DNA from: a virus | Taxonomy: Duplodnaviria; Caudoviricetes | Strand: one strand, 5' to 3' | DNA: 64,000 nucleotides | IMG/VR virus record: IMGVR_UViG_3300017791_000207 | Coordinates: 1-64,000 of that record | Shown: piece after piece, positions 9,603 through 59,821 of the stretch | Numbering within the stretch: position 1 is the first letter of the stretch | How the letters are laid out: each line of letters begins with the position of its first letter | Made by a program: the position numbers and the translations under genes | The notes under the pieces: model-generated | Database searches by the model: none | Seen by the model: the letters and a program-made list of their open reading frames with translations, nothing else | What the model was told of the DNA's origin: nothing

Positions 9603-10694
9603 TTGAGAACATTTACAGTTGGAGAAAAGATAGGTGAAAATATTTTATTAGAATATTTAGGACGAGAAGGAAAACATCATATGGGAATGTTCGAATGTTT
9701 AAAATGTTCTAAACCTTATAAGGCAAAAGTTTCTATAGTTCAAGCAAAAGATAAAAAATATTGTGGATGTTATAATCACAATATTGGAAACACTTATGGT
9801 AAAACAAGTAGTTATATTAAATTAGGGATTGATGCTAAAACTTCTGAATATCATGCATGGAATGCAATGAGACATAGATGTAATAGTCCTAAAAATAGAG
9901 ATTATCATAAATATGGGGCTATTGGAATAACCGTTTGTGAGGAGTGGAATGATGTAAAGACAGGGTATATAAAATTTTTAGAGGATATGGGTAATAGACC
10001 ATCAAATAAACATGGCCTATACAGAATAGATGTTACAAAAGGATATTCAAAAGAAAACTGTGAATGGATAATGGATTGTGAAAAAGCTGTTAAAACAAAC
10101 AAATTCAAAAGTTATATTTACGAAGGTACTGTTTATAGCAGTAGAGAAATTTCAGAATTATTTGGTCATAATATTACAATGGCAAATGAATATGAAAGAA
10201 AAGGATTATCAGATGATGAAGTTATTGAACAATTAAAATTATCTGCTGAGAAGAAAAAGAAATTAGCAGCAAGAAGCAAAGAAGAAAGGAAAATTTTAAA
10301 TAAAATAAGAGTAAGTGTTAGAGGAAGACTTCACAAAGCTTTAGATGAAAAATTAAATAAAAAGAAGAATGATTATACTAAAAATATATTAGGGTTGGAT
10401 ATGGAACAATTCTTTTTATACTTAGAATCTAAATTTGAAGAAGGTATGACTTGGGATAATTATGGTAACAACGGTTGGCATATAGATCATATTATTCCTC
10501 TTTCATGTGGAGATACCGAAGAAGAAATTTATCTTTTATCTCATTATACAAATCTTCAACCTTTGTGGGCTGAGGAAAACCTCAGAAAGAATGCAAAATT
10601 AGATAAGAGTTTAATTCCGAAACTCACTGAAATTAAAGAAAAAGCAAAACAAAGAGAAATTAAAAAATTTTTATTAACAATTCAAAACAAATAA
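9603..10694 (+). CDS. Free-standing HNH-type homing endonuclease, bipartite
   Basis: N half: CxxC..CGC, EYHAWNAMRHRC, YGAIGITVCEEW, RID..KGYSKENCEW. C half: GMTWDNYG..WHIDHIIP...HYTNLQPLWAEENLRK. Confidence 0.8.
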   Translation: MRTFTVGEKIGENILLEYLGREGKHHMGMFECLKCSKPYKAKVSIVQAKDKKYCGCYNHNIGNTYGKTSSYIKLGIDAKTSEYHAWNAMRHRCNSPKNRDYHKYGAIGITVCEEWNDVKTGYIKFLEDMGNRPSNKHGLYRIDVTKGYSKENCEWIMDCEKAVKTNKFKSYIYEGTVYSSREISELFGHNITMANEYERKGLSDDEVIEQLKLSAEKKKKLAARSKEERKILNKIRVSVRGRLHKALDEKLNKKKNDYTKNILGLDMEQFFLYLESKFEEGMTWDNYGNNGWHIDHIIPLSCGDTEEEIYLLSHYTNLQPLWAEENLRKNAKLDKSLIPKLTEIKEKAKQREIKKFLLTIQNK

Positions 10695-42159: not shown

Positions 42160-42594
42160 TTAATCAATCATAAAATAATCATTAACAATATCAGGATATT
42201 TCTCTATCACTAAATCAACTATTTCACTACTCTTAAAGCACACGCCCGAAGGATAACCCGCACCGACCTGACCGTAGCAGCCGATGACAACCCACCGAGA
42301 ACCAGACCAGTATTTTTTAAGGATATACTTATATTGAGAACCATTCTTAAAGTCAGCTACCCAATCACCATTGTAATATTTGGCAATATGAAATAGTTGC
42401 ATCTGAGCATTTAACTGTCTTTCCCACTTATCAGTTGTATTTGATGGATATGGAAGTTTAATACTTTCTATGTTTGGTGAATTGAATGTATCTTTACCAT
42501 AAGCCGTTTCAAACATTATTTGCATGGCTCTTGGACTTTCACCATAATATTTGATAGCATCTTCTTTACTGATTTCTAATTTTTTGTTTTCCAT
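42160..42594 (-). CDS. Paralogue of the DGR target protein (second, remote target)
   Basis: Shares LPY, NA, NG, WVV, PSGVCFKSS, P(D/E)I..DY.MI with ORF 57752..58303. Confidence 0.8.
   Translation of the reverse strand: MENKKLEISKEDAIKYYGESPRAMQIMFETAYGKDTFNSPNIESIKLPYPSNTTDKWERQLNAQMQLFHIAKYYNGDWVADFKNGSQYKYILKKYWSGSRWVVIGCYGQVGAGYPSGVCFKSSEIVDLVIEKYPDIVNDYFMID
42236..42307 (-). repeat. VR2: diverged DGR variable-repeat-like segment
   Basis: Locally GC-rich run of NNC/NNT codons; 15-nt identity with VR1 (42239-42253 = 57834-57848); aligns to TR with many A-site changes but also non-A changes and indels. Confidence 0.7.
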
Positions 42595-43827: not shown

Positions 43828-44457
43828 TTAAGGAGATTGTAATTTATCTACGTAAATTAAATTTGTTTTATTCTTGTCTTTTCCGTTCAACCAACCTCTG
43901 AGGGTTGACCATTTAATATTGTAAGCTTCGGCAGCATCTTTACAACAATCAAAAAATATACCTGTTTGTAAATCCACTACTAGTTTAGCTCTACCATTAT
44001 CTCCTCTTTCTCTCCAACCACAAGGTCTTTTAACACCTTTGAATAATTTACTTATTATATTTCTAGTCTCCTCATTGTGAGTTTTTTCGAAAAATGGATT
44101 TTTACTACCTAATTTAACTTCTGAATATTTTTTTCTACTGTCATCTGATAAAACCGAAGGTAAAATATTAGTAGAAGAATAACAACAATTCAATCCTACA
44201 TTTAATGTATCATAAAATTCCTGCCAATAACGTTCTCTTTCATTAAGGTCTTCAATTGAACATTCTTCGATTATTTCAAAAATATGATTTTTGAATCCAT
44301 ATTCTTGCAACGATTGAAAAATTAATCTTTGATTCTTACAACGGTTATTTCGATAAGAACTCCATCTACTTAATATATTTTTACTTTGTCCTACATATAT
44401 TTCTCCAATGGGATTAATGATCTTATAGATTCCTATTATCTTATTTTTATAAGGCAT
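43828..44457 (-). CDS. GIY-YIG homing endonuclease with NUMOD-like repeats
   Basis: GIYKI..YVGQS..R, FEIIE, ERE, GLN; NPF..KTH.EETR; ATG 44457 is the likely start. Confidence 0.85.
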   Translation of the reverse strand: MPYKNKIIGIYKIINPIGEIYVGQSKNILSRWSSYRNNRCKNQRLIFQSLQEYGFKNHIFEIIEECSIEDLNERERYWQEFYDTLNVGLNCCYSSTNILPSVLSDDSRKKYSEVKLGSKNPFFEKTHNEETRNIISKLFKGVKRPCGWRERGDNGRAKLVVDLQTGIFFDCCKDAAEAYNIKWSTLRGWLNGKDKNKTNLIYVDKLQSP

Positions 44458-44581
44458 AAACAAAAAATCCTCCAAATTAGGTTGCTGAATCACCGAAGTA
44501 ATACCTAAAATGGAGGAGAATAAGTTTATAATAGATGACTCAGCGATACAAATGTAAAACAAATTATTTACAATTCCAAAT

Positions 44582-46636
44582 TTATTTTGATAATTCTTTT
44601 ATTTCTTCCTTAGTTTGAGGTTTACCATAAGTTTCAACAAGCCATTCTTTTCCATAGGTTTCAAGTTGTTTGTTAGTGGGAACCTTGTCTAAACAGAATT
44701 TACGGAAATTTTCAAATTCCTTATTTCTTTTTTCTTCTTCTCTTTTCGCGCGCGCTTTCTCAGCCAATCTTTCTTCTGTGCCATCTATTTTTTCTATGAT
44801 CTTACGACATTCATCAATGTAATAATCATAATCTATACCATATTCAGTAATCGCTGCTTCATAATAAGTATTAAAAATGGTAACTTTCTTATTAGCTTCG
44901 ATATCAATTTGTTTTTCATCCTTGAACTTACGAAATCTTCTTCCTTCCTTAGAAATAAAGTACCTGTTATTCTTTTGCTGAGGAATACTGTCATTTTCAT
45001 CTTCTCCTACCGTTTCACATTTCCATCCATGACTTGCATTGAAAGTTTTACAGAAATCGTAAATATTTTGATGATTATAAATCGTATCAGCTACAGGAAT
45101 ATCCTTTAAATAGAATTCTGATAGGGCATGAGTGACCACACATTGAGATAAGGACTTATGGTATTCTCCATCTTTAATCATCTCTTCACGAGGCTTAAAA
45201 GCACCTTTATATTTAACTTTACCTTTTACATCTTGACTTAGATAGTTATTAACATCTCTTATCACCATTTTTTGATAAGCAACATACTCCAAACCTAATT
45301 TTGTTGTTTTTTCCCATTCCTGACAAACTTCCCAATACAGGCGTTTATATTCTATAGGGATCATTACTGTAATACCATCTGTGTTTACCTGTAATACTTT
45401 TAAATTGGGTACTTTCGTCATCAACATTTCAGATAACATACAAAGTGCTAATTGTCCCGCAAGAGTAGTTTTCAAGGTATATAAAGGATCATATAAGAAG
45501 CTATACATACTATTACTCTTGCCGTAGGTAGCATTTGCGGAGATCTTCAACCCATCAGCCATGGTCTTATCTCCTCGTTTCTTAGCCTCCATACGAGGTT
45601 TTACAATGTTATCCTCATATACAGTAAGAAATTCCTTACCCAAGTGATAAGGATATAAACCATTGGTAATAGCTAAGTTAGGATACAAGGAACCTACGTC
45701 CGCATCAACAATACATTCTTTATCCGTAGATTTATATATTCCTGGTTTAATACACATGTGAATGCCTCCTGTCCCAAGGTCAAACTCAGCATCTCCAAAC
45801 GAAAAAGAGTATTTAAAAGAATCCTTTAATTCCGTTACTTCAATGCCTTTTAAATATTCAAGAAGTTCATTAAATTCAGGAGTCTCAAAACTTACATAAT
45901 CAGGGATACATTCGCGAAATCTAAAACCCTTACGAAAAGTCCTCATCTTACGAACTTCATCAATAGGTTTAGATGTATGTTCACAATATAATTTGAGTAC
46001 TAATTCTTCACCAATTTTACTATCGGAGAAATTCATACAATTTATACCATATTTGTCTCTTAATCCTCTCCTAAGTTCAAGTTTATCTAAAGTCTTGGTA
46101 TAAAATGTCTTGGTAGCTTCTACATCATTTTTATTGTATGATAGGATTTCTTGCACTTGTTCTTCTGTTTCTATTTCTTGATCGTGAGCATAAGGCATAT
46201 CTTGGACATTCGGAAACTGCATAGCTATTTCTAGCTTTTTAAGTGAACATCTCCTAGCATTATTATCGTAGTGCCAAATCTTATAAAGATCCAACTGAGG
46301 AATAAGAACTTCGACTTCCTTTACCATAGAAAATAACTCGTCAATTACTTTTTGAGCTTTTTTATAGATTTCCTTGGCTAATCGTTTTCCTGTATAAGTA
46401 AGGAATTTATCTCTATTTTTTAGAATATGATGAATTACGGGATAATCGAACTCCAAATTATTATACCCTATTTGTCCTTTAAGAGTGTCTAAATGGTCTA
46501 ATAAAGCAGGTAAATCATTTCTTTTATGCCAAATAACAAACATTTTAGTATCATCGCTGTCTCTGTCTGTACCCGTATAAGTGAAACAATTACAGAGAGT
46601 CTCAATATCATAAACTTCTACTCTATTCTTTACCAT
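44582..46636 (-). CDS. Family B DNA polymerase
   Basis: Exonuclease motifs YDIE, YN..FD, YNKND; polymerase motifs DVGSLYP, K...NATYG, VNTDG. Confidence 0.92.
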   Translation of the reverse strand: MVKNRVEVYDIETLCNCFTYTGTDRDSDDTKMFVIWHKRNDLPALLDHLDTLKGQIGYNNLEFDYPVIHHILKNRDKFLTYTGKRLAKEIYKKAQKVIDELFSMVKEVEVLIPQLDLYKIWHYDNNARRCSLKKLEIAMQFPNVQDMPYAHDQEIETEEQVQEILSYNKNDVEATKTFYTKTLDKLELRRGLRDKYGINCMNFSDSKIGEELVLKLYCEHTSKPIDEVRKMRTFRKGFRFRECIPDYVSFETPEFNELLEYLKGIEVTELKDSFKYSFSFGDAEFDLGTGGIHMCIKPGIYKSTDKECIVDADVGSLYPNLAITNGLYPYHLGKEFLTVYEDNIVKPRMEAKKRGDKTMADGLKISANATYGKSNSMYSFLYDPLYTLKTTLAGQLALCMLSEMLMTKVPNLKVLQVNTDGITVMIPIEYKRLYWEVCQEWEKTTKLGLEYVAYQKMVIRDVNNYLSQDVKGKVKYKGAFKPREEMIKDGEYHKSLSQCVVTHALSEFYLKDIPVADTIYNHQNIYDFCKTFNASHGWKCETVGEDENDSIPQQKNNRYFISKEGRRFRKFKDEKQIDIEANKKVTIFNTYYEAAITEYGIDYDYYIDECRKIIEKIDGTEERLAEKARAKREEEKRNKEFENFRKFCLDKVPTNKQLETYGKEWLVETYGKPQTKEEIKELSK

Positions 46637-47463
46637 TGGTATATTCCTCCTCTATCAATAAAGGTTTTACGATTAAGGTTTATTTCAGAAAGACATTTGT
46701 TCAAGGTATTCTCTTGAAGTTTACTGGAATAAGTATGTCTTCCTTCACTATTTTCGAATAATCTCCCTTGAGGATCAATCAGTAAATAAGATCCTGTCAT
46801 AGCTTCATTATCTTCTACTACCATAGAAGGATGAGAGTGTTTTTGAACAAATCTTTCAAATCCATTCCAATAAGTTCTAATTTCTTCAAATTGAGTATCA
46901 TTTTGACCTTCTACTCTAAGCGTGTCAAATATTTTCCATCGAGAAGGGTTAGCCCATGAAATGAATTTTTGCATATCTTCATTTTGGTTGTATCTATTTA
47001 CTACAGTATTTATTTTCAGTTTAAATCCCATAGACTTTATTTTATGGATTAACACAAAATAATCAAATTCTTTTTTGGAAGTACGCCCTATTTTAAGGTT
47101 AGTTTCAGGATTCAGAGAGTCAATAGAAATACCAATCCAATCGAGTTTACCTTTGAATTTAGTTAGAAGTTCATCTGTCAATAAAGAACCATTTGTAATA
47201 ATAGAAGTTACCAAGTCTATCTTCTTAGAATAAGAAATAACTTCATAAATCCATCTGTAAAGAAGTGGTTCTCCTCCCGCGAAAGTCACTTTCTCTACTC
47301 CACCTTCTTTAAGCTTATCCAAGATATTGAATACATCCCCTTTAGAGATCTGATTTATAACATGCATATCTTCAAAGGTTGCATAACAGAATTTACATTT
47401 CATGTTACATGGTTTGACTATATGGAATGATACTGTCTCAAATGGTTTATTATCGTTTTTCAT
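46630..47463 (-). CDS. Viperin-like radical SAM enzyme (putative ddhNTP synthase)
   Basis: FH..KPCNMKCKFCY, KVTFAGGEP, SIITNGS, ISIDS, KINTVVN, P.RWKIF, VEGQN, EDN..MTGSY..IDP.GR.F: viperin-type motifs along the whole length. Confidence 0.85.
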   Translation of the reverse strand: MKNDNKPFETVSFHIVKPCNMKCKFCYATFEDMHVINQISKGDVFNILDKLKEGGVEKVTFAGGEPLLYRWIYEVISYSKKIDLVTSIITNGSLLTDELLTKFKGKLDWIGISIDSLNPETNLKIGRTSKKEFDYFVLIHKIKSMGFKLKINTVVNRYNQNEDMQKFISWANPSRWKIFDTLRVEGQNDTQFEEIRTYWNGFERFVQKHSHPSMVVEDNEAMTGSYLLIDPQGRLFENSEGRHTYSSKLQENTLNKCLSEINLNRKTFIDRGGIYQW

Positions 47464-53522: not shown

Positions 53523-56340
53523 TGTATAAATTTTTTACATAATAATTCCATCCACTCCATTCCATATAAACGCGCGGTTCTCTTGGTACGATAGGGTTGT
53601 AAGGAAGATTTTTGAAATCTCTAATATTTTTTACTTTATTCACTAATAGATATTTAATAAAATCTTCGTAATTTAATTTAACATATCTTATTTTACTTGG
53701 AAAGAAATCCTCTTTATTATATTCTTTATAAAATCTATTAGGGTAAAGAGGTAAAATATTTTTTGGAAATTCTATGTTTAATGAACCTTCTTTCCACTTT
53801 CTATATTGTCTAATACTTGATATAATTCCATTATGCTTCTTATTTACTTCAATTATAGTTTTCTTAGCATCTTCATAAGAAATATATTTTAATTCTTGTA
53901 ACTTTTTCCAATTCCATTTACCTTTATAAACCGAATAAGGGTTTTGTGGAATATAAGGAGGATAATTGTCCTTTCTTTTTTCATGAGTGTTACAATCTAA
54001 AATTTCATTTCTTACAAACCATTTAATAGCTTCTTCAAATGATAAAAATCCTTCTTTATAGTTTAAAAATTCGTGCCATCTAAATTTAACACCATACCTT
54101 TTTTCAGGATCTTTTGGAAGATTTGGGGGAAAATCATTTTTTAAAGTCCATTTTTTATATTGTCTAAATGTTTTAATGTTTGAATGATTCTCTAAAATAT
54201 ATTTTTTAGCTACTGGATAACTATAAATCTCAGGTTTGAAAATGTTTTTCCAACCAGGCCAATCTCTATAATATTCTCGTGGATATCGAGGACAACGATA
54301 ATTTTTTATTTTTAAATATTCTTTCTCTGTATAAATCTGTTCTCTTTTTAAGTATGTTTTTAGTTCTTCTAATGTATAAAACTTACTTCCTTTTATGAAA
54401 CTAAATTTAAACACTTCTTTAAAATCAAAAACTTTTAATTTATTACCAGAATATTCCAAAAACTCAATATTTCCCTTAAAAGTACTATTATTAGGCTTGG
54501 CCTTAAAAGAGGTTATTCTTCCATCTTGTGTTTCTAATGCATTCAGTACTTCGATTAACTTTTCATAATCTTCTGATTCTGAGGGAATTATTACATATCC
54601 TCGTTTTTTATTAGGATACTTACGAATGCATCTGCCCACTGATTGTACAATATCAATTTTACTTTTCTTGGGATAACCATATAAAACAGCATCCGTATTC
54701 CTTACATCCATTCCTTCCTGAAAGCAATTTACCGAGGATATAACTGCCTTTTCAGCGTTTACAAAATTACCATATTGATTTTCATATAAAAATTCTGTTT
54801 GTTTAGAATTAATAGTAGAAGTATTGTAATCTAAACCATGAATCTTTTGAAATTTGTCATAGACTTCTATAAATAACTCGGCTTCATGAATAGTGGGATG
54901 ATAAGTTATTATCTTTTTGATACCATATTTCTGTATTGATTTAATGAGTGCCAACGCAGAAACTAAAATTCGAGTCTTAATACCTAACTTAATATTTTTA
55001 TCAAGGAAAAATTCTTCATTTATTTCCAATATATTCCTTACTTCTTCAGATTTAAAACCTATACTAAGTATTTTATAATCTAAGACTATTTTGTTTTGAA
55101 TCATTTCGGGTAATGAAATATTGGATATAGTTTCTCCAAATTTTTCATTATTCATCCCTATACCCTCATTAAGAAAGATTTTTTCAGTAGCTGTTAAAAA
55201 TAGGGCTTTCTCATATTTAGTAGAAGTAACTGCCGAAAGATACTTCTTATTTTCAGGTCCTGCTATTCTATGAGCTTCATCAAAAATTGCTAATTGAAAA
55301 TCAGGAAATTTATTAATGATGGATTCAAAACTTTTTAGAGTTGTAAATACTACAATATTAGCAGTCTTACTTATTCCTTGTATAGCTTCCATTTGCTTTT
55401 CTACAGAAGATGCAAGTAATGCAATTTTATTACTTTTAAGAGGTTTTTGAAATAATGAACCAAAGGCATAAAACCTGTGGTTAGGTAAAGAGTTCTTGAA
55501 AGCTTTTATTTGTTGATATAATAACATTCGGGAAGGGATAACTACTATCAGCCTTTTAATATCTAATTTCTTGACTATTTCAATAGCTGTATAGGTTTTA
55601 CCTGATCCACATGGATGTATTACCTTACCTCTGTTATTATCCTTAAAAAATTCTACTGCTTTATTTATGGTGCATGTTTGATGTTCCCACTCTTTAAATT
55701 TAGTAGTTGTCTGTTGATCTTTTGTTGGAATGACTTCCAATTTCCTTACAAGAGGTTTTTCATTTATAAGAGTTGGAATAATAGAACTAAAAGCATTTTC
55801 GATGTTATTTTTACTTAATTTAGTATCATCTTGAATGGTTTTTAGACAAATTTTCCCCTTTTGTAGAAGTGTGTAAACACCAATTAAGTTTTGAAGTGCT
55901 TTTTTGTCTTTCCCTTGGAGGTTAGTACCTTTATCAAAGGAGTAAGATTCACCACAGTTATTACAGTCATATCTTTTACCGCGCTGTATTACATTGGTGC
56001 TACTACATTTAATACAAGTTTTGTTATCTCCCCATATAATTTTCTCAAAATAATCATATACAAAGCTTTCAGTAGATGAAATACTCTCAATATCTTTTCC
56101 TTCAAGAGGTCTTTCAAACTTATCATAGGAATTTCTATCTTGAATATCATAAACCTTAAAATAAGATTTATATTTCTTTTTGAGTACTTCTAATATTTCC
56201 TCTTCTGTAAATTCTTTATCTTGTTCAGCTAAAAATAAATACAAATCAGAAATAAGATCATCTTTTTCAAAGAAGTTACTCTCAAAAGCACCATTTCTGA
56301 ATTGTTTATCTATTATTTCGGATATTGTATTATATTCCAT
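53509..56340 (-). CDS. Multidomain SF2 helicase: N-terminal helical region, Zn ribbon, DEAH helicase, five integrase-repeat-like units
   Basis: CIKC..CNNC; PCGSGKT, FDEAH, LTAT, EGMD, QSVGRCIR; five (Y/F).E(A)K....P..P..Y..W repeats. Confidence 0.8.
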   Translation of the reverse strand: MEYNTISEIIDKQFRNGAFESNFFEKDDLISDLYLFLAEQDKEFTEEEILEVLKKKYKSYFKVYDIQDRNSYDKFERPLEGKDIESISSTESFVYDYFEKIIWGDNKTCIKCSSTNVIQRGKRYDCNNCGESYSFDKGTNLQGKDKKALQNLIGVYTLLQKGKICLKTIQDDTKLSKNNIENAFSSIIPTLINEKPLVRKLEVIPTKDQQTTTKFKEWEHQTCTINKAVEFFKDNNRGKVIHPCGSGKTYTAIEIVKKLDIKRLIVVIPSRMLLYQQIKAFKNSLPNHRFYAFGSLFQKPLKSNKIALLASSVEKQMEAIQGISKTANIVVFTTLKSFESIINKFPDFQLAIFDEAHRIAGPENKKYLSAVTSTKYEKALFLTATEKIFLNEGIGMNNEKFGETISNISLPEMIQNKIVLDYKILSIGFKSEEVRNILEINEEFFLDKNIKLGIKTRILVSALALIKSIQKYGIKKIITYHPTIHEAELFIEVYDKFQKIHGLDYNTSTINSKQTEFLYENQYGNFVNAEKAVISSVNCFQEGMDVRNTDAVLYGYPKKSKIDIVQSVGRCIRKYPNKKRGYVIIPSESEDYEKLIEVLNALETQDGRITSFKAKPNNSTFKGNIEFLEYSGNKLKVFDFKEVFKFSFIKGSKFYTLEELKTYLKREQIYTEKEYLKIKNYRCPRYPREYYRDWPGWKNIFKPEIYSYPVAKKYILENHSNIKTFRQYKKWTLKNDFPPNLPKDPEKRYGVKFRWHEFLNYKEGFLSFEEAIKWFVRNEILDCNTHEKRKDNYPPYIPQNPYSVYKGKWNWKKLQELKYISYEDAKKTIIEVNKKHNGIISSIRQYRKWKEGSLNIEFPKNILPLYPNRFYKEYNKEDFFPSKIRYVKLNYEDFIKYLLVNKVKNIRDFKNLPYNPIVPREPRVYMEWSGWNYYVKNLYNETN

Positions 56341-56519
56341 TATATTCTAAATATTGTTTTGATTAAATTTTTAGTTGCCAAATCAGAAATAGTTTTAACT
56401 ACGCCTGATTGTTGTCTTTCTAAATTTTGAGTATATCTTTTCTTATACTCTTCTCGAACTTGTTCAGATTTTTTTAATGACCATTTTCCATGAACAAGAT
56501 ATTTGTCTATTGTATTCAT
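56340..56519 (-). CDS. 59-aa ORF coupled to both RT (ATGA) and helicase (TAATG)
   Basis: MNTIDKYLVHGKWSLKKSEQVREEYKKRY...KTIFRI; exact overlaps at both ends. Confidence 0.55.
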   Translation of the reverse strand: MNTIDKYLVHGKWSLKKSEQVREEYKKRYTQNLERQQSGVVKTISDLATKNLIKTIFRI

Positions 56520-57457
56520 TGTATTAAAAGTTTAGCTTCAAGATTCCTCGCGTTGGCATGACCAGTCCAACCAAGATAGGAAGCGATTGATGTTAATTTG
56601 TGCCTGTTTCTTCGGAAATTTTCTTTGATATATTTTCTTACTTTTACTTTATCCTGATCAATTACATAACCAAGGAAGTCCAAAGGTCTTTTATTGATAG
56701 GAAATACTTGTTTATTCGAGAGTTTCAATCTTAATTTTTTATCAAGGTAATCTTCAATCTCATTTTTCAAGTAATATAAATACTCTTTACTCTCATGAAA
56801 TATTACAATGTCATCGCAGTAGATAGCAAGATATTTTATTTTTATGACTTCTTTAAGGTAATGTGAGAATTCGTTAAGATAAACATTTCCAAACCACTGC
56901 GAGGTAAAATTACCAAGTACGCAGCCATGCTCGATAGAATCAATAATCAAATCTAACAACCACAATAAATCAGGATCTTTAAACTTACGTCTCAGAAAGC
57001 CTTTCAAAAGGTCGTGAGATAGTGATGGGTAAAATTTCTGAATATCCATCTTCAAAACATACTTAGTTCCTTTCCTATCTTTAAGATGTTTCTTAATGTC
57101 TTTCAAGCACTTATGGACTCCGCGCGATTTAAGGCAAGAATAGGTCTGAGAAATAAAACTATCTTTTAAAATATCTCCAATGACAAGTATTATCGCCCAT
57201 TGAACAACACGATCTTTAAATGGAAGCTTTGAAATAATTCTTTCTTTAGGCTCATAAATCTTGAATACGAAATACTCCGATAACTTATAGGTTCTTGTTA
57301 ATAATTCTTGCTGTAAGAGTCTCAAATTTTCACTTAAATTACTGTTCCATATCCTAACATCCTTCTTCTTTCTTTTGCCTTTCTGCGCCTTCTGAGAAGC
57401 CTTTATGAGGTTCTCCATACTCACTATCTTATAGAATAAATTTCCTTTTCTTTTCAT
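56516..57457 (-). CDS. DGR reverse transcriptase
   Basis: F.IYEPKER.I, FKDRVVQ, MDIQKFYPS, LGNFTSQ (DGR-type GxxxSQ), YCDD, DFLGY. Confidence 0.93.
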   Translation of the reverse strand: MKRKGNLFYKIVSMENLIKASQKAQKGKRKKKDVRIWNSNLSENLRLLQQELLTRTYKLSEYFVFKIYEPKERIISKLPFKDRVVQWAIILVIGDILKDSFISQTYSCLKSRGVHKCLKDIKKHLKDRKGTKYVLKMDIQKFYPSLSHDLLKGFLRRKFKDPDLLWLLDLIIDSIEHGCVLGNFTSQWFGNVYLNEFSHYLKEVIKIKYLAIYCDDIVIFHESKEYLYYLKNEIEDYLDKKLRLKLSNKQVFPINKRPLDFLGYVIDQDKVKVRKYIKENFRRNRHKLTSIASYLGWTGHANARNLEAKLLIQ

Positions 57458-57618
57458 TCTTTTATTTTATCACTCAACATCCCTGAGTGCTTATTACTAA
57501 GTCTCTTTCTACAATGATACTAAAGCCCGTTCAACTCATCTGTTTTTTACCACGGCTAGAAATGAGAAATATATTCTAACTTTATAGGTAGGGTCTAATT
57601 GTCTTTCTTTTTTATAAT

Positions 57619-57693
57619 AAACATACGTCTGAAGGAATCATCGTGTTGTTGTTCCAATTGTTGTTGTAGTTGACAACTCAGTCGTGATCAGAC
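57619..57693 (-). repeat. DGR template repeat (TR)
   Basis: Intergenic AAC-rich 75-mer; ungapped match to VR1 with 17 mismatches, all at TR adenines. Confidence 0.95.
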
Positions 57694-57751
57694 TTTGACT
57701 AAGGGGGTAGAATGTAGACACATTCAATTAGACCTTTTACTTGCTTTTATA

Positions 57752-58303
57752 CTACTCGTTTATCATTGAATAGTCATCATATATTTCAGGGAACATTTCA
57801 TATGCTTTTAAAGCTAATTTTGAAGATTTAAAACACACGCCCGAAGGAAGCAACGCGCCGTTGCTCCAATCGTAGCTGCAGTAGACAACCCAGCCGAGAT
57901 CAGACGAATAATACTTGTATGGAAAATATTTACCCATACTTGTATCTTTCCAAGTAAGCTCAGTTCCTCCATTCATTACTTCCGAAATAATCATCATCTT
58001 TTCAGATGCATTGATACTTTTTTGACGTGGGGTGAGTTTATTACCTTGGTAAGGAAGAACCAATTTATCTAGTCTTTCTTGAATGACAGACTTATCGATA
58101 TCTCCTGGTTCTTTAAGGTATTTCTTCAGAGTTTTAGTTTGTTCTTCGTTGGCAGCTTCAAACATTTCAGATACTTGTGCTTGTGTAAGTTCTGTATCTT
58201 CAAATAGAGAAGTCATTTTCTTGATTTTACTCTTCCAATCTTGACAAGCGATATCAAAAATGGCTTTCATACCTTCGTAAGGTACTTTTTGTGTGTTACT
58301 CAT
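57752..58303 (-). CDS. DGR target protein (about 183 aa)
   Basis: Contains VR1 (SDLGWVVYCSYDWSNGALLPSGVCF) near the C-terminus; ATG 58303 is the likely start. Confidence 0.88.
   Translation of the reverse strand: MSNTQKVPYEGMKAIFDIACQDWKSKIKKMTSLFEDTELTQAQVSEMFEAANEEQTKTLKKYLKEPGDIDKSVIQERLDKLVLPYQGNKLTPRQKSINASEKMMIISEVMNGGTELTWKDTSMGKYFPYKYYSSDLGWVVYCSYDWSNGALLPSGVCFKSSKLALKAYEMFPEIYDDYSMINE
57831..57905 (-). repeat. DGR variable repeat (VR1)
   Basis: 17 of 25 TR adenines substituted (12 A>G, 4 A>T, 1 A>C); no non-A mismatch. Confidence 0.95.
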
Positions 58304-58907: not shown

Positions 58908-59290
58908 CGTATCTGAAGCACAGCATTCGGGCTAAAGTCATTCCATCGCTACTTTACAGAGAGCTTGCAGATGAAATCCTCCTCATCTTTGGAGAGGGTA
59001 CAGTTATACTTTTTTGGGAGAACCTTTATTAGTTTTTCTATACCATTGACTATTAGGAGTACGAAGTACAGAACACCCACAAGTCAAGAAGGAGTACGAA
59101 AGGAAACCTGTAAGTATAGAGTGCTAGACTAAAAGTGCGAAGCACAAAGGTTTAAACCATTAACTATACAACTAGAAACCAAAATAGTACTCAAATAGAG
59201 AATCAAGAGTGGAAATGTAAAATAGAGGAAACGATCAAGAATAAGTACGAAATATGAGGCGTTTTCTTGACATTTATCAAGATTATAATT
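58908..59290 (+). other. Long non-coding, hairpin-rich region (candidate ncRNA, leader or origin)
   Basis: About 380 nt without a long ORF; AGGAGTACGAA x2, GTGC-GAA-GCAC and GTAC-GAA-GTAC mini-hairpins, several stems. Confidence 0.4.
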
Positions 59291-59821
59291 ATGAATAAAT
59301 TGAAATATAAATCATACAGTAGCATTAAACCTTCTTTTGCAGAGGTTCAAATCATCCAACAATTAAAAGATAGAAATATCTTCTATGTTAGAGAAGTGTA
59401 TTTTTATGGTTGTACAAATCCTAAAACAGGTTGTGAGTTAAGGTTTGACTTTTATATTCCAAATAAAAATCTCATAATTGAGTATGATGGTAAGGATTTT
59501 CATGAAGATAATGATGTGCAATACAGAGATTCGGTTAAGAATAAGTTTGCTAAACTCAACAAGATAAAAGTTGTGAGAATCGAAGGTATTCAGAATATTA
59601 CTAAAGTATTAAACCAATATTTCAATTCTAAGAGCAAGCCTAAGTTCAAAAGTAAAAATACCAAAGCACAATCTTATGGTTTATCAAACAATCAAAAGAA
59701 ACGTCTAACTGAACTTTTACAGCTTCAAAAAGATAGTCCTTTAGAATTTTATGATATGCTGATGGATATTAGAAAAACAGAGAAAAGAGTGTATGCCGAA
59801 TTAAAGAGACAATTCCCTTAA
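59291..59821 (+). CDS. DUF559/Vsr-like endonuclease
   Basis: S.AE..I, E..F, LRFDFYIP, IIEYDG..H, RD..KN, VRI; the only credible + strand gene in this arm. Confidence 0.8.
   Translation: MNKLKYKSYSSIKPSFAEVQIIQQLKDRNIFYVREVYFYGCTNPKTGCELRFDFYIPNKNLIIEYDGKDFHEDNDVQYRDSVKNKFAKLNKIKVVRIEGIQNITKVLNQYFNSKSKPKFKSKNTKAQSYGLSNNQKKRLTELLQLQKDSPLEFYDMLMDIRKTEKRVYAELKRQFP

Follow-up and report, generated by a model that had tools for sequence, protein, structure and literature searches.

The only phage DGR with an experimentally shown biological role is that of BPP-1, which diversifies a receptor-binding protein. Small DGR targets lying among early/replication genes make up a large and widespread family, which has been catalogued since 2021 without a name, a function or a structure. 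Roux et al. (2021) (Nat Commun 12:3076, PMC8144416, Supplementary Data 2-5, 8) file the cluster PC_00007 as 'Phage_other', that is, as a non-structural or unknown viral DGR target. PhANNs calls only 1.6% of it structural, the VR lies at a relative position of 0.69-0.77, and the linked RT cluster (REF_DGR_[t122]) belongs to DGR clade 1 and to FCB viruses, with soil-peat among its biomes. The same authors allow PC_00007 to be a structural protein that is still uncharacterised, and place in it the gut secondary target 2510129634. Quimbyvirus has a small non-structural DGR target for which a role in phage-host conflict was proposed, and which has genes for defence and counter-defence around it (Benler et al., 2021; PMC8008677). 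In the Roseburia phage Shimadzu, reads show that orf43 is truly diversified, selection on the small second target being weaker than on the tail target (Cornuault et al., bioRxiv 10.1101/575076).

Here we analyze a DGR from a stretch of 64,000 nucleotides (positions 1 to 64,000 of IMG/VR record IMGVR_UViG_3300017791_000207, hereafter the window), part of a complete soil phage genome of 115,287 bp with terminal repeats. A preliminary description of the window had overstated the novelty of its arrangement, which PC_00007 and the reports of Benler et al. and Cornuault et al. precede; the notion of a wholly new kind of DGR target was dropped, since the family appears in the supplementary data of Roux et al.

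Anatomy of the cassette

The cassette, on the minus strand, combines a target gene of 183 aa and an RT of 313 aa with a VR and a TR of 75 nt each (Table 1). The GNFTSQ and YCDD motifs of the RT, noted in the preliminary description, are present; the ORF is intact, both the GxxxSQ and the YxDD motif being kept. It matches RVT_1 of Pfam (1.7e-15) and the PHROG family phrog_1423 'reverse transcriptase' (2.9e-107). A phylogenetic tree places it with the RT of a sister locus (L007; support 94/82) within a clade of phage DGR RTs, and 57 of 71 related RT loci possess a TR/VR pair with at least 80% of the mismatches at TR adenines.

Table 1. Coordinates of the cassette features and of the remote paralogue in the window.
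Feature	Position	Strand	Description
Target paralogue	42160..42594	-	144 aa, C domain only; 36% identity over 106 aa
59-aa basic ORF	56340..56519	-	pI 10; start overlaps RT stop; stop overlaps helicase start
DGR reverse transcriptase	56516..57457	-	313 aa; LGNFTSQ at residue 182, YCDD at 213
10-bp perfect inverted repeat bracketing TR	arms 57592..57601 and 57725..57734	.	read from sequence
TR	57619..57693	-	75 nt, non-coding, AAC/AAT-codon-rich; in-frame TGA opposite target Trp138
IMH*-like TR end (CCTTCAGACGTATG)	57622..57635	-	three A/G positions apart from VR copy
DGR target gene	57752..58303	-	183 aa from ATG common to orthologues
VR	57831..57905	-	75 nt; encodes target residues 134-158
IMH-like GC-rich 14-mer (CCTTCGGGCGTGTG)	57834..57847	-	within coding sequence; encodes conserved P-S-G-V-C motif

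The pairing of TR and VR reported in the preliminary description is borne out, as are its positions: the two repeats differ at 17 of 75 nt, and all 17 differences fall on TR adenines (12 A>G, 4 A>T, 1 A>C). In other words, 17 of the 25 TR adenines are changed in the VR and none of the 50 other positions is mismatched, an outcome with a probability of 3.6e-11 by chance (hypergeometric). Codon positions 1 or 2 are the site of 13 of the 17 changes, and the TR, read in the frame of the target, gives N-Y-N-N-N-W-N-N-N. The VR contains 11% A against 41% in the remainder of the target gene, and the pair is the only A-specific one in the entire 115,287-bp genome. The lack of any non-adenine mismatch argues for a VR copied recently from exactly the present TR.

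That the repeats arose by chance or by an ordinary duplication next to an unrelated RT (from a retron, a group II intron or a defence system) has next to no probability. The RT does give matches to group II intron, retron and Drt models in profile searches, but these lie far under the cut-offs of the models, and the RT has a GxxxSQ motif of the DGR type; the adenine counts, together with the adenine-biased pairs in the 57 related loci, refute such an origin. No match to the Avd family PF05635 was found across the whole genome at E <= 1, and none of the ORFs listed in the cassette has the size of Avd. Avd occurs in about 74% of DGRs and is hence not universal, the layout without it being architecture A of Wu et al. 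(29% of DGRs). The element is confirmed as a genuine compact DGR without Avd.

Close to the 3' end of the VR is a GC-rich 14-mer, of which the remote paralogue described below has an identical copy, and the residues Gly155 and Cys157 of the target are invariant among all homologues. Fixed TR/VR differences of the same type are present at the 3' end of all sister cassettes. The A>G differences at 57842, 57840 and 57836 lie in this 14-mer, which is fixed in every copy, and are best read as marks that distinguish IMH from IMH* and not as random mutagenesis. The earlier statement that changes are mostly A>G stands as a count (12 of 17), with the reservation that the last three would be fixed marks of this kind. 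The 14-mer itself may serve as the IMH in homing.

The arms of the inverted repeat around the TR pair in the minimum-free-energy fold. The spacer RNA from target to RT as a whole folds no better than shuffled sequence (z = -0.41), inspection by eye of the L007 TR surroundings revealed no comparable inverted repeat, and scans for promoters and terminators gave results at chance level. The small basic ORF after the RT has no family match in profile searches and might, speculatively, encode an accessory factor; as a conserved accessory gene it finds no support in L007, the ORF that follows the RT there being dissimilar.

A paralogue of the target, not overwritten by the present TR, is located 15 kb from the cassette. 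It has a VR-like stretch (42233-42304) with 8% A, compared with 40% elsewhere in the gene, and comparison with an orthologue (P0163) reveals hypervariability in this stretch only. Aligned with the present TR, the stretch shows non-A mismatches and a 3-nt gap. The paralogue would represent a second target at a distance, which is old or else was written from a different template.

The target, its family and variation among relatives

The target has two domains, an N domain (residues ~1-65) and a C domain (~66-183) that bears the VR and comprises helices, a beta-hairpin, a variable loop and two C-terminal helices. The VR occupies 0.73-0.86 of the protein length and leaves 25 codons downstream, as first noticed in the preliminary description; this corresponds to the norm of the family (0.69-0.77 in the table of Roux et al., 25-27 codons in L007), whereas most sister targets of tail type with intact ORFs have 0-9 codons past the VR. 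The length of 183 aa and the lack of a signal peptide, also noted earlier, hold: orthologues share the ATG, and the highest Kyte-Doolittle mean over 19 residues is 0.72 in a protein of pI 5.2, which leaves no signal-peptide or membrane-like segment.

Structure prediction, suggested at the outset as a way to recognise a C-type lectin-like fold, gave confident AlphaFold2 models (pLDDT 90.1 for the whole target and 88.7 for the C domain alone). No match to a solved fold was found for them, C-type lectin included, and the fold might still be a lectin variant. Sequence searches of the target against Pfam, NCBIfam and PDB gave no match, those against PHROG and Pfam no structural protein, and an alignment (A2) searched against PDB no variable protein. 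A profile built from the C-termini of 21 sister-DGR targets (A5) does match TaqVP 5VF4 at 2e-5, while the profile of the target family (A4) aligns with A5 at an hhalign probability of 19% over 20 columns; we could not find profile homology between the target family and the lectin-type VR domains of Mtd, TvpA and TaqVP. Structural matches to crAss-like proteins were obtained in BFVD (E 1e-5 to 1e-2, TM 0.35-0.47). We treat them as leads, since the family profile finds weak and unconvincing matches in five distantly portal-related phage records (four Crassvirales and one Leptolyngbya phage) and, in Hankyphage, matches the tail-fibre VR alone.

The family to which the target belongs is large, unnamed and of phage origin, with 327 clusters. 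In 145 clusters at <=50% identity, the residues K, E, Q and M make up 0.1-0.4% of the VR-equivalent stretch against 1-11% elsewhere, and C makes up 8.7% against 1.1%. At the level of sequence composition, a signature of adenine mutagenesis in the VR-equivalent stretch is family-wide. Members 2611844238/9 and 2523836780/1 of PC_00007 carry the motifs of the family, and three proteins that match the target at E 1e-7 to 2e-6 (P0082, P0097, P0113) have motif strings nearly identical to those entries. By these shared motif strings, the target family would correspond to PC_00007.

Cassettes of the type 'small target(s) - TR ~78 nt - RT' are widespread in phages and prophages of Bacteroidota. Examples with one to three family genes, a TR of ~78 nt and an RT are present in Elizabethkingia, Apibacter, Yeosuana and other Bacteroidota genomes. 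Fourteen loci in Bacteroidota genomes include a related RT in seven cases and A-only TR/VR repeats in eight, seven of these eight with two VRs; L007 likewise has two tandem targets, each with a VR of its own. The Elizabethkingia miricola cassette follows Mu-like transposition genes, and that of Yeosuana marina lies among small accessory genes. Some family members measure 120-160 aa, and many lack the N-terminal domain of ~65 aa; proteins of 280-380 aa that contain the N domain have no Pfam domain. One homologue (L003) has no RT within 4 kb or elsewhere on its 39%-complete contig, and its large neighbouring gene is not the helicase. Searches of GenBank phage records with the cassette (blastn) and the target (tblastn, even at E <= 10), of metagenome contigs with alignment A1, and of IMG/VR with P0020 and P0016 found no relative.

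Among nine orthologues with 45-73% identity to the target, the TR-adenine codons 141-144, 147-149 and 151-152 are occupied by five to seven different residues, with conserved flanks, and the VR is different in every orthologue. The metagenome material compared consists of Logan contigs of 90-95% relatives. A contig of a soil relative aligns on both sides of positions 57848-57943 (most of the VR plus 38 nt upstream), which are swapped for 88 unlike letters, and the TR of another relative (X4) differs by three letters and one 8-nt deletion over 209 nt. An invariant VR among relatives had been put forward as the mark of an inactive element; given its hypervariability in the nine orthologues and in the soil contig, the element is no invariant relic, and it may still be active in the source phage.

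The TR also has adenines facing codons that never vary among the VRs (a TGA opposite Trp138 and an ACG opposite Ala150), so that many retrohoming events should yield dead or truncated alleles. Such alleles sit oddly with an efficient diversifier.

Could the cassette nonetheless be a relic of past retrohoming that no longer works in this phage, the differences among relatives being inherited? The in-frame TGA and the adenines at invariant codons would fit this scenario, as would a paralogue VR out of register with the present TR, and crAss-like phages often have cassettes that are silent or fragmented. Yet the 50 non-adenine positions remain free of mismatches, the RT keeps an intact frame and its catalytic motifs, the VR differs in every orthologue, and sister cassettes in many genomes likewise show purely A-type differences, all of which makes a relic very unlikely.

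Genome position and possible role of the target

The portal of the phage is 23-30% identical to portals of crAss-like phages, to which the phage is distantly related. As the preliminary description had it, the target lies among early-type genes and outside the tail module. The cassette is part of a minus-strand replication arm that includes a SNF2/ResIII helicase, a DNA polymerase, a primase, a DnaB-like helicase, RNR and an exonuclease, while those for terminase, portal, capsid and tail occupy the plus strand at ~74-115 kb and 1-14 kb. The target gene is ~16 kb from the terminase-to-tail block, on the opposite strand, and is followed directly by the RT, the small ORF and the helicase, with overlapping start and stop codons. 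Neither module position nor similarity to virion proteins identifies it as a tail fibre or receptor-binding protein.

We consider it probable that the locus represents a functional, or recently functional, compact DGR without Avd, of the type 'small target(s) - TR ~78 nt - RT', with a soluble intracellular binding protein as its target. According to this reading, the RT would reverse-transcribe an RNA containing the TR, with misincorporation opposite adenines, and the resulting cDNA would replace the VR of the adjacent 183-aa gene, the 3' limit of the replacement being set by the in-frame GC-rich IMH that encodes P-S-G-V-C. About 12 codons (residues 136-152) would be randomised, corresponding to the predicted second strand of the beta-hairpin and the loop after it, within a conserved scaffold in which two predicted helices precede the hairpin and two follow the loop. 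Most likely, the target is made inside the infected cell as a soluble hypervariable binding protein and is not a tail fibre. We infer its expression time, intracellular location and binding function, and read its 'early' and 'non-virion' status from gene order and strand; gene position makes an intracellular anti-defence or host-takeover role plausible.

Alternatively, the target may be a virion component, such as a small protein docked on tail or capsid for receptor binding or decoration, and the DGR may serve host-range switching as in BPP-1. The precedent of BPP-1, the one phage DGR with a proven role, points in this direction, as does the fact that catalogued viral targets are mostly predicted tail proteins. 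Moreover, in some gut phages a tail-fibre target and a protein of PC_00007 have one VR in common (2510129634, which appears together with PC_00002), the A4 profile weakly touches the tail-fibre VR region of Hankyphage (E 0.007), and Roux et al. leave PC_00007 possibly structural. However, the target lies on the strand opposite to the virion genes, inside the replication arm and in a run of overlapping ORFs with the RT and a helicase, and an early/accessory placement is repeated in an unrelated Mu-like prophage. It has no structural match in PHROG or Pfam, members of 120-160 aa are too small for an anchoring domain, structural PhANNs calls concern just 1.6% of PC_00007, and the small Shimadzu target is selected more weakly than the tail target. 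We therefore regard a virion role as unlikely.

Among intracellular functions, the target might act as a sensor or exclusion factor against competing phages or mobile elements (superinfection exclusion, lysogen immunity) instead of countering host defences. Consistent with this idea, the cassette is found in Elizabethkingia, Apibacter and Yeosuana prophages, putative antigen sensors diversified by DGRs are described in bacteria (PMC10907252), and the hypervariable target of Benler et al. is located among defence/counter-defence genes. No effector domain is present in the target or conserved alongside it, though, no integrase was found in the annotated parts of this 115-kb, lytic-looking genome, and the portal is related to those of crAss-like phages; the case for exclusion is drawn from context, and we hold it distinctly unlikely.

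Returning to a soluble intracellular binder, one may go further and tentatively propose, though as a rather unlikely reading, that PC_00007-type proteins are dedicated early intracellular binders diversified by DGRs on a scaffold other than the canonical lectin, with the homing signal in frame, and that they neutralise, for instance, host defence or competitors. If true, they would provide the first non-lectin DGR scaffold and a role for DGRs in counter-defence, not adsorption. Sister cassettes in cultured strains of Elizabethkingia, Apibacter and Yeosuana offer settings that can be tested at the bench.

Comparison with described cassettes

With the DGRs of crAss-like phages (Epsilon, Zeta; PMC11054128, PMC12386605), the present element has in common the order target-TR-RT, mostly without Avd, and a setting in large phages of Bacteroidota whose genes form two blocks of opposite orientation. 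It resembles the mtd-avd-TR-brt cassette of BPP-1 in the adenine-specific transfer from TR to VR, the GxxxSQ motif of the RT, a VR in the 3' portion of the target and, putatively, the non-identical IMH/IMH* ends. It differs from BPP-1 in the absence of Avd, in TR and VR of 75 nt versus 134 nt, in a target that is most likely not a tail fibre and has no detectable C-type lectin match, and in a putative IMH inside the coding sequence with 25 further codons past the VR.

Quimbyvirus and Shimadzu likewise have a small hypermutated protein of unassigned function, off the structural module and on the opposite strand. However, their small protein is secondary and has a long VR of lectin type in common with a tail protein, whereas there is no tail target here, the small protein being the primary target, with a short TR and VR of 75 nt.

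A close likeness exists to the PC_00007 cassettes, which also have small targets (~120-190 aa) with matching conserved motifs flanking the VR, a VR at ~0.7-0.8 of the protein length followed by ~25-30 codons, a TR immediately upstream of the RT, no Avd, a viral origin and soil among the biomes. Most of these cassettes, whether catalogued or recovered here, possess two or three tandem targets, in contrast to the one adjacent target and the out-of-step paralogue 15 kb away in the present phage. In addition, the present target has an extra N-terminal domain of ~65 aa that many members lack, and it is carried by a 115-kb, lytic-looking phage with a portal 23-30% identical to those of crAss-like phages. 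To this known type, the locus adds putative IMH/IMH* marks fixed in frame, a likely second and older-written paralogue target, and confident models for which no solved fold was found to match; it stands as a further member of the type, clean and complete, within a phage genome that is closed.

The retroelement and its putative homing marks

[quoted passage not shown] Of the 75 paired positions, 17 are mismatched, and each of these is an adenine in the TR (A>G at 12, A>T at 4, A>C at 1), whereas the 50 non-adenine TR positions all match; the chance of such a restriction is 3.6e-11. The RT motifs, repeat coordinates and adenine-only, mostly A>G mismatches of the preliminary description are borne out, as is a target of about 183 aa with about 25 codons after the VR. 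Neither a second such TR/VR pair nor a homologue of the accessory protein Avd was found across the whole 115,287-bp genome; Avd-less cassettes make up 29% of the DGRs surveyed by Wu et al. Scores of the RT against models of group II intron, retron and Drt enzymes fall far below the cut-offs of those models.

Features of the DGR, its surroundings and the phage genome
Feature	Coordinates	Strand	Remarks
Target ORF	58303..57752	-	183 aa
VR	57905..57831	-	inside target ORF
TR	57693..57619	-	within 295-nt spacer between target and RT
Inverted repeat arms	57592-57601, 57725-57734		perfect, 10 bp
RT	57457..56516	-	313 aa; LGNFTSQ and YCDD; RVT_1 and phrog_1423 matches
Small ORF	56340-56519	-	59 aa, pI 10; between RT and SNF2/ResIII helicase
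Target paralogue (C domain)	42160-42594	-	144 aa; 36% identity; between DnaB-like helicase and DNA polymerase genes
Virion block	~74 kb via ends to 14 kb	+	terminase, portal, major head protein, tape-measure-like and tail proteins
Replication block	~14.5-64 kb	-	DNA polymerase, DnaB-like helicase, second helicase, primase; exonuclease, ribonucleotide reductase, radical-SAM protein, 943-aa SNF2/ResIII helicase
Radical-SAM protein	46630-47463	-	277 aa; phrog_1802, 6e-18; end overlaps DNA polymerase gene start
Large terminase	74639-77749 of genome (L004:10639-13749)		1036 aa; matches split, residues ~215-579 and ~576-1025
Homing-endonuclease-like gene	9603-10694	+	HNH/endonuclease VII
Homing-endonuclease-like gene	43828-44562	-	GIY-YIG
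Homing-endonuclease-like gene	59267-59821	+	HNH; opposite strand to DGR target, ~1 kb upstream, early arm

In all sister cassettes, TR and VR copies are set apart at their 3' ends by the same differences (TR GTCAGCTCTCACCTATGC, VR GTCGGCTCTCGCCTTTGC), which are best taken as fixed homing marks (IMH* in TR, IMH in VR) and not random products. The window equivalent is TR CCTTCAGACGTATG versus VR CCTTCGGGCGTGTG; the VR version, a 14-mer, is identical in a remote paralogue and encodes an invariant P-S-G-V-C motif. Of the 17 mismatches, three are thus putative IMH/IMH* marks, leaving 14 as mutagenesis proper. The putative homing signal sits within the coding frame, ahead of 25 codons for two helices.

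At the 5' end, sister VRs show A>G at a conserved Gly codon, the TR keeping A where all VRs carry G. In the window, too, TR adenines oppose invariant target residues, with TGA against Trp138 (57678-57680) and ACG against Ala150 (57654-57656), so many retrohoming events should give truncated or damaged alleles, whether the TR is copied faithfully or mutated to the wrong base.

The inverted repeat that brackets the TR could pair to form an enclosing stem in the RNA; the overall RNA fold there is no better than that of shuffled sequence, and by eye we saw no equivalent repeat around the TR of L007, a related locus. The small ORF begins on the RT stop (ATGA) and ends on the helicase ATG (TAATG), so that start and stop codons overlap along all three genes. 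No homologue of this ORF was found in L007.

The target family and its predicted fold

The target has no sequence match in Pfam, NCBIfam or PDB. We found nine close homologues, some on contigs of 98-117 kb, and a family of 327 clusters (E <= 1e-3) in a library of 1.8 billion proteins, none of them named and all viral where the origin is known. The N-terminal 65 residues are optional: many members, at 120-160 aa, match residues ~66-183 alone.

The preliminary description had held that a VR invariant across relatives would speak for an inactive element; among the nine orthologues, the VR codons are instead hypervariable, those with TR adenines (141-144, 147-149 and 151-152) carrying five to seven different residues between conserved flanks. 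Across 145 clusters at <=50% identity, the 12 VR-equivalent columns are poor in K, E, Q and M (0.1-0.4% versus 1-11% elsewhere) and rich in Cys (8.7% versus 1.1%) and Tyr (13.9% versus 6.7%). Such a composition is that expected from AAY codons mutated at adenines, so that the family as a whole looks DGR-written. A 178-aa member with 40% identity (L003:4001-4537), on a 74-kb contig (39% complete), has DGR-like composition in its VR-equivalent stretch; neither the locus DNA nor the rest of this partial contig contains an RT or TR.

AlphaFold2 modelled the whole target with a pLDDT of 90.1, and residues 66-183 alone with 88.7. The predicted C domain consists, in order, of two helices, a beta-hairpin (126-133, 137-144), a variable loop, a short bridge at a conserved Cys and two C-terminal helices. 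In this model the VR corresponds to the second hairpin strand plus the loop, where confidence drops to 68-77. On the earlier question of whether the target is CLec-like, Foldseek gave no PDB match below E 0.6, and hhalign aligned the family profile with a lectin-type profile at a probability of 19%, over the VR end only. The target may still have a lectin fold in divergent or partial form, given that a lectin-type VR is common to one cluster member and a tail protein.

A second target and the genomic setting

The 115,287-bp phage record, of which the window is the first 64 kb, has 141-bp direct terminal repeats and a G+C content of 32%. With a portal 23-30% identical to those of Crassvirales, Flavobacterium and Cellulophaga phages, it is by sequence a distant relative of crAss-like phages. 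Soil metagenomes contain contigs 90-95% identical to the DGR locus. The split matches of the large terminase, with weak primase/DnaC-like ATPase hits in its first part, could reflect an insertion or an atypical extension of the N-terminus.

The paralogue, 15 kb from the DGR target, has a VR-like stretch (42233-42304) with 8% A versus 40% in the remainder of the gene, and differs hypervariably from its orthologue P0163 (72% identity) in this stretch only. Against the present TR it shows non-A mismatches and a 3-nt gap (one codon shorter), located where the TR of a soil relative misses 3 nt (57658). These features therefore mark it as a second DGR-written target, one that was written either earlier or with a different TR allele as template.

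To judge from its gene position, the target most likely acts as a soluble hypervariable binder and is not part of the virion.

Related cassettes and the known catalogue

Scanning IMG/VR, we identified 71 loci with RTs 26-48% identical to that of the window, and TR/VR pairs in 57 of them (threshold: TR adenines accounting for 80% or more of the mismatches). The usual locus, typified by L008, has a target of 350-1200 aa, a VR of 107-146 nt followed by 0-9 codons, and a TR that closely precedes the RT. A profile built from the C-termini of 21 such targets matches the Thermus variable protein TaqVP (5VF4) at 2e-5, and these are therefore lectin-type tail targets. The window RT groups with that of L007 (support 94/82) within the clade of those RTs, and among the IMG/VR loci L007 alone has targets of the window type: two in tandem (160 and 155 aa; VR of 51-61 nt each, with 25-27 further codons), followed by a single TR and by the RT. 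The DGR locus closest to these two in the tree (L044:2400-3640) has its VR in an 89-aa open frame downstream of a 196-aa ORF, which suggests a tail-type target that is broken or has suffered a frameshift.

A scan of GTDB genomes with the family protein P0082 returned 14 loci, in Elizabethkingia miricola, E. meningoseptica, E. occulta, Apibacter muscae and Yeosuana marina and in several MAGs of Sphingobacteriaceae, Chitinophagaceae and Bacteroidales. Two or three family genes occur in 12 of the 14, and a related RT (E ~1e-87) was found in seven. Eight showed a TR of 76-81 nt from which the VR differs at adenines only; in seven of these there are two VRs. Five are prophage cassettes with two targets, a TR of ~78 nt and an RT: L089 (E. 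miricola GTC_862), L090, L092 (A. muscae), L095 (Y. marina) and L096; the VR is A-only in both targets of four, and in one target of L090. In E. miricola, the genes for a Mu-type transposition protein and its ATPase precede the cassette, which thus lies in the early region, and the cassette of Y. marina neighbours small unknown genes and a MazG-like pyrophosphatase; early or accessory placement therefore recurs in a quite different phage type.

The targets 2611844238/9 and 2523836780/1, listed as tandem primary and secondary pairs (Roux et al., 2021, Supplementary Data 8; PMC8144416), carry the same VR-flanking motifs as the family proteins P0082, P0097 and P0113. They are assigned to PC_00007 ('Phage_other', relative VR position 0.69-0.77, DGR clade 1, FCB viruses), and on this motif identity our family would belong to the same cluster. 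RT cluster t122 comprises 1,459 sequences; PC_00007 accompanies it in 208 cases, and its biomes include soil-peat (Roux et al., 2021). PC_00007 is classed as non-structural/unknown (PhANNs 1.6% structural; Supplementary Note 8), while the same authors allow that it may be a structural protein so far uncharacterised. In a human-gut FCB virus, the PC_00007 member 2510129634 serves as secondary target beside a PC_00002 tail protein, the primary one, and both have the same long VR (PMC8144416). This pairing connects the family with the 'second, remote, non-structural' type of target in Benler et al. (2021; PMC8008677). In phage Shimadzu, sequencing shows both VRs to be actively mutated, including VR2 in orf43, of unknown function (Cornuault et al., bioRxiv 10.1101/575076). 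Cassette type and target family thus belong to a published but uncharacterised class, of which the window provides a further member.
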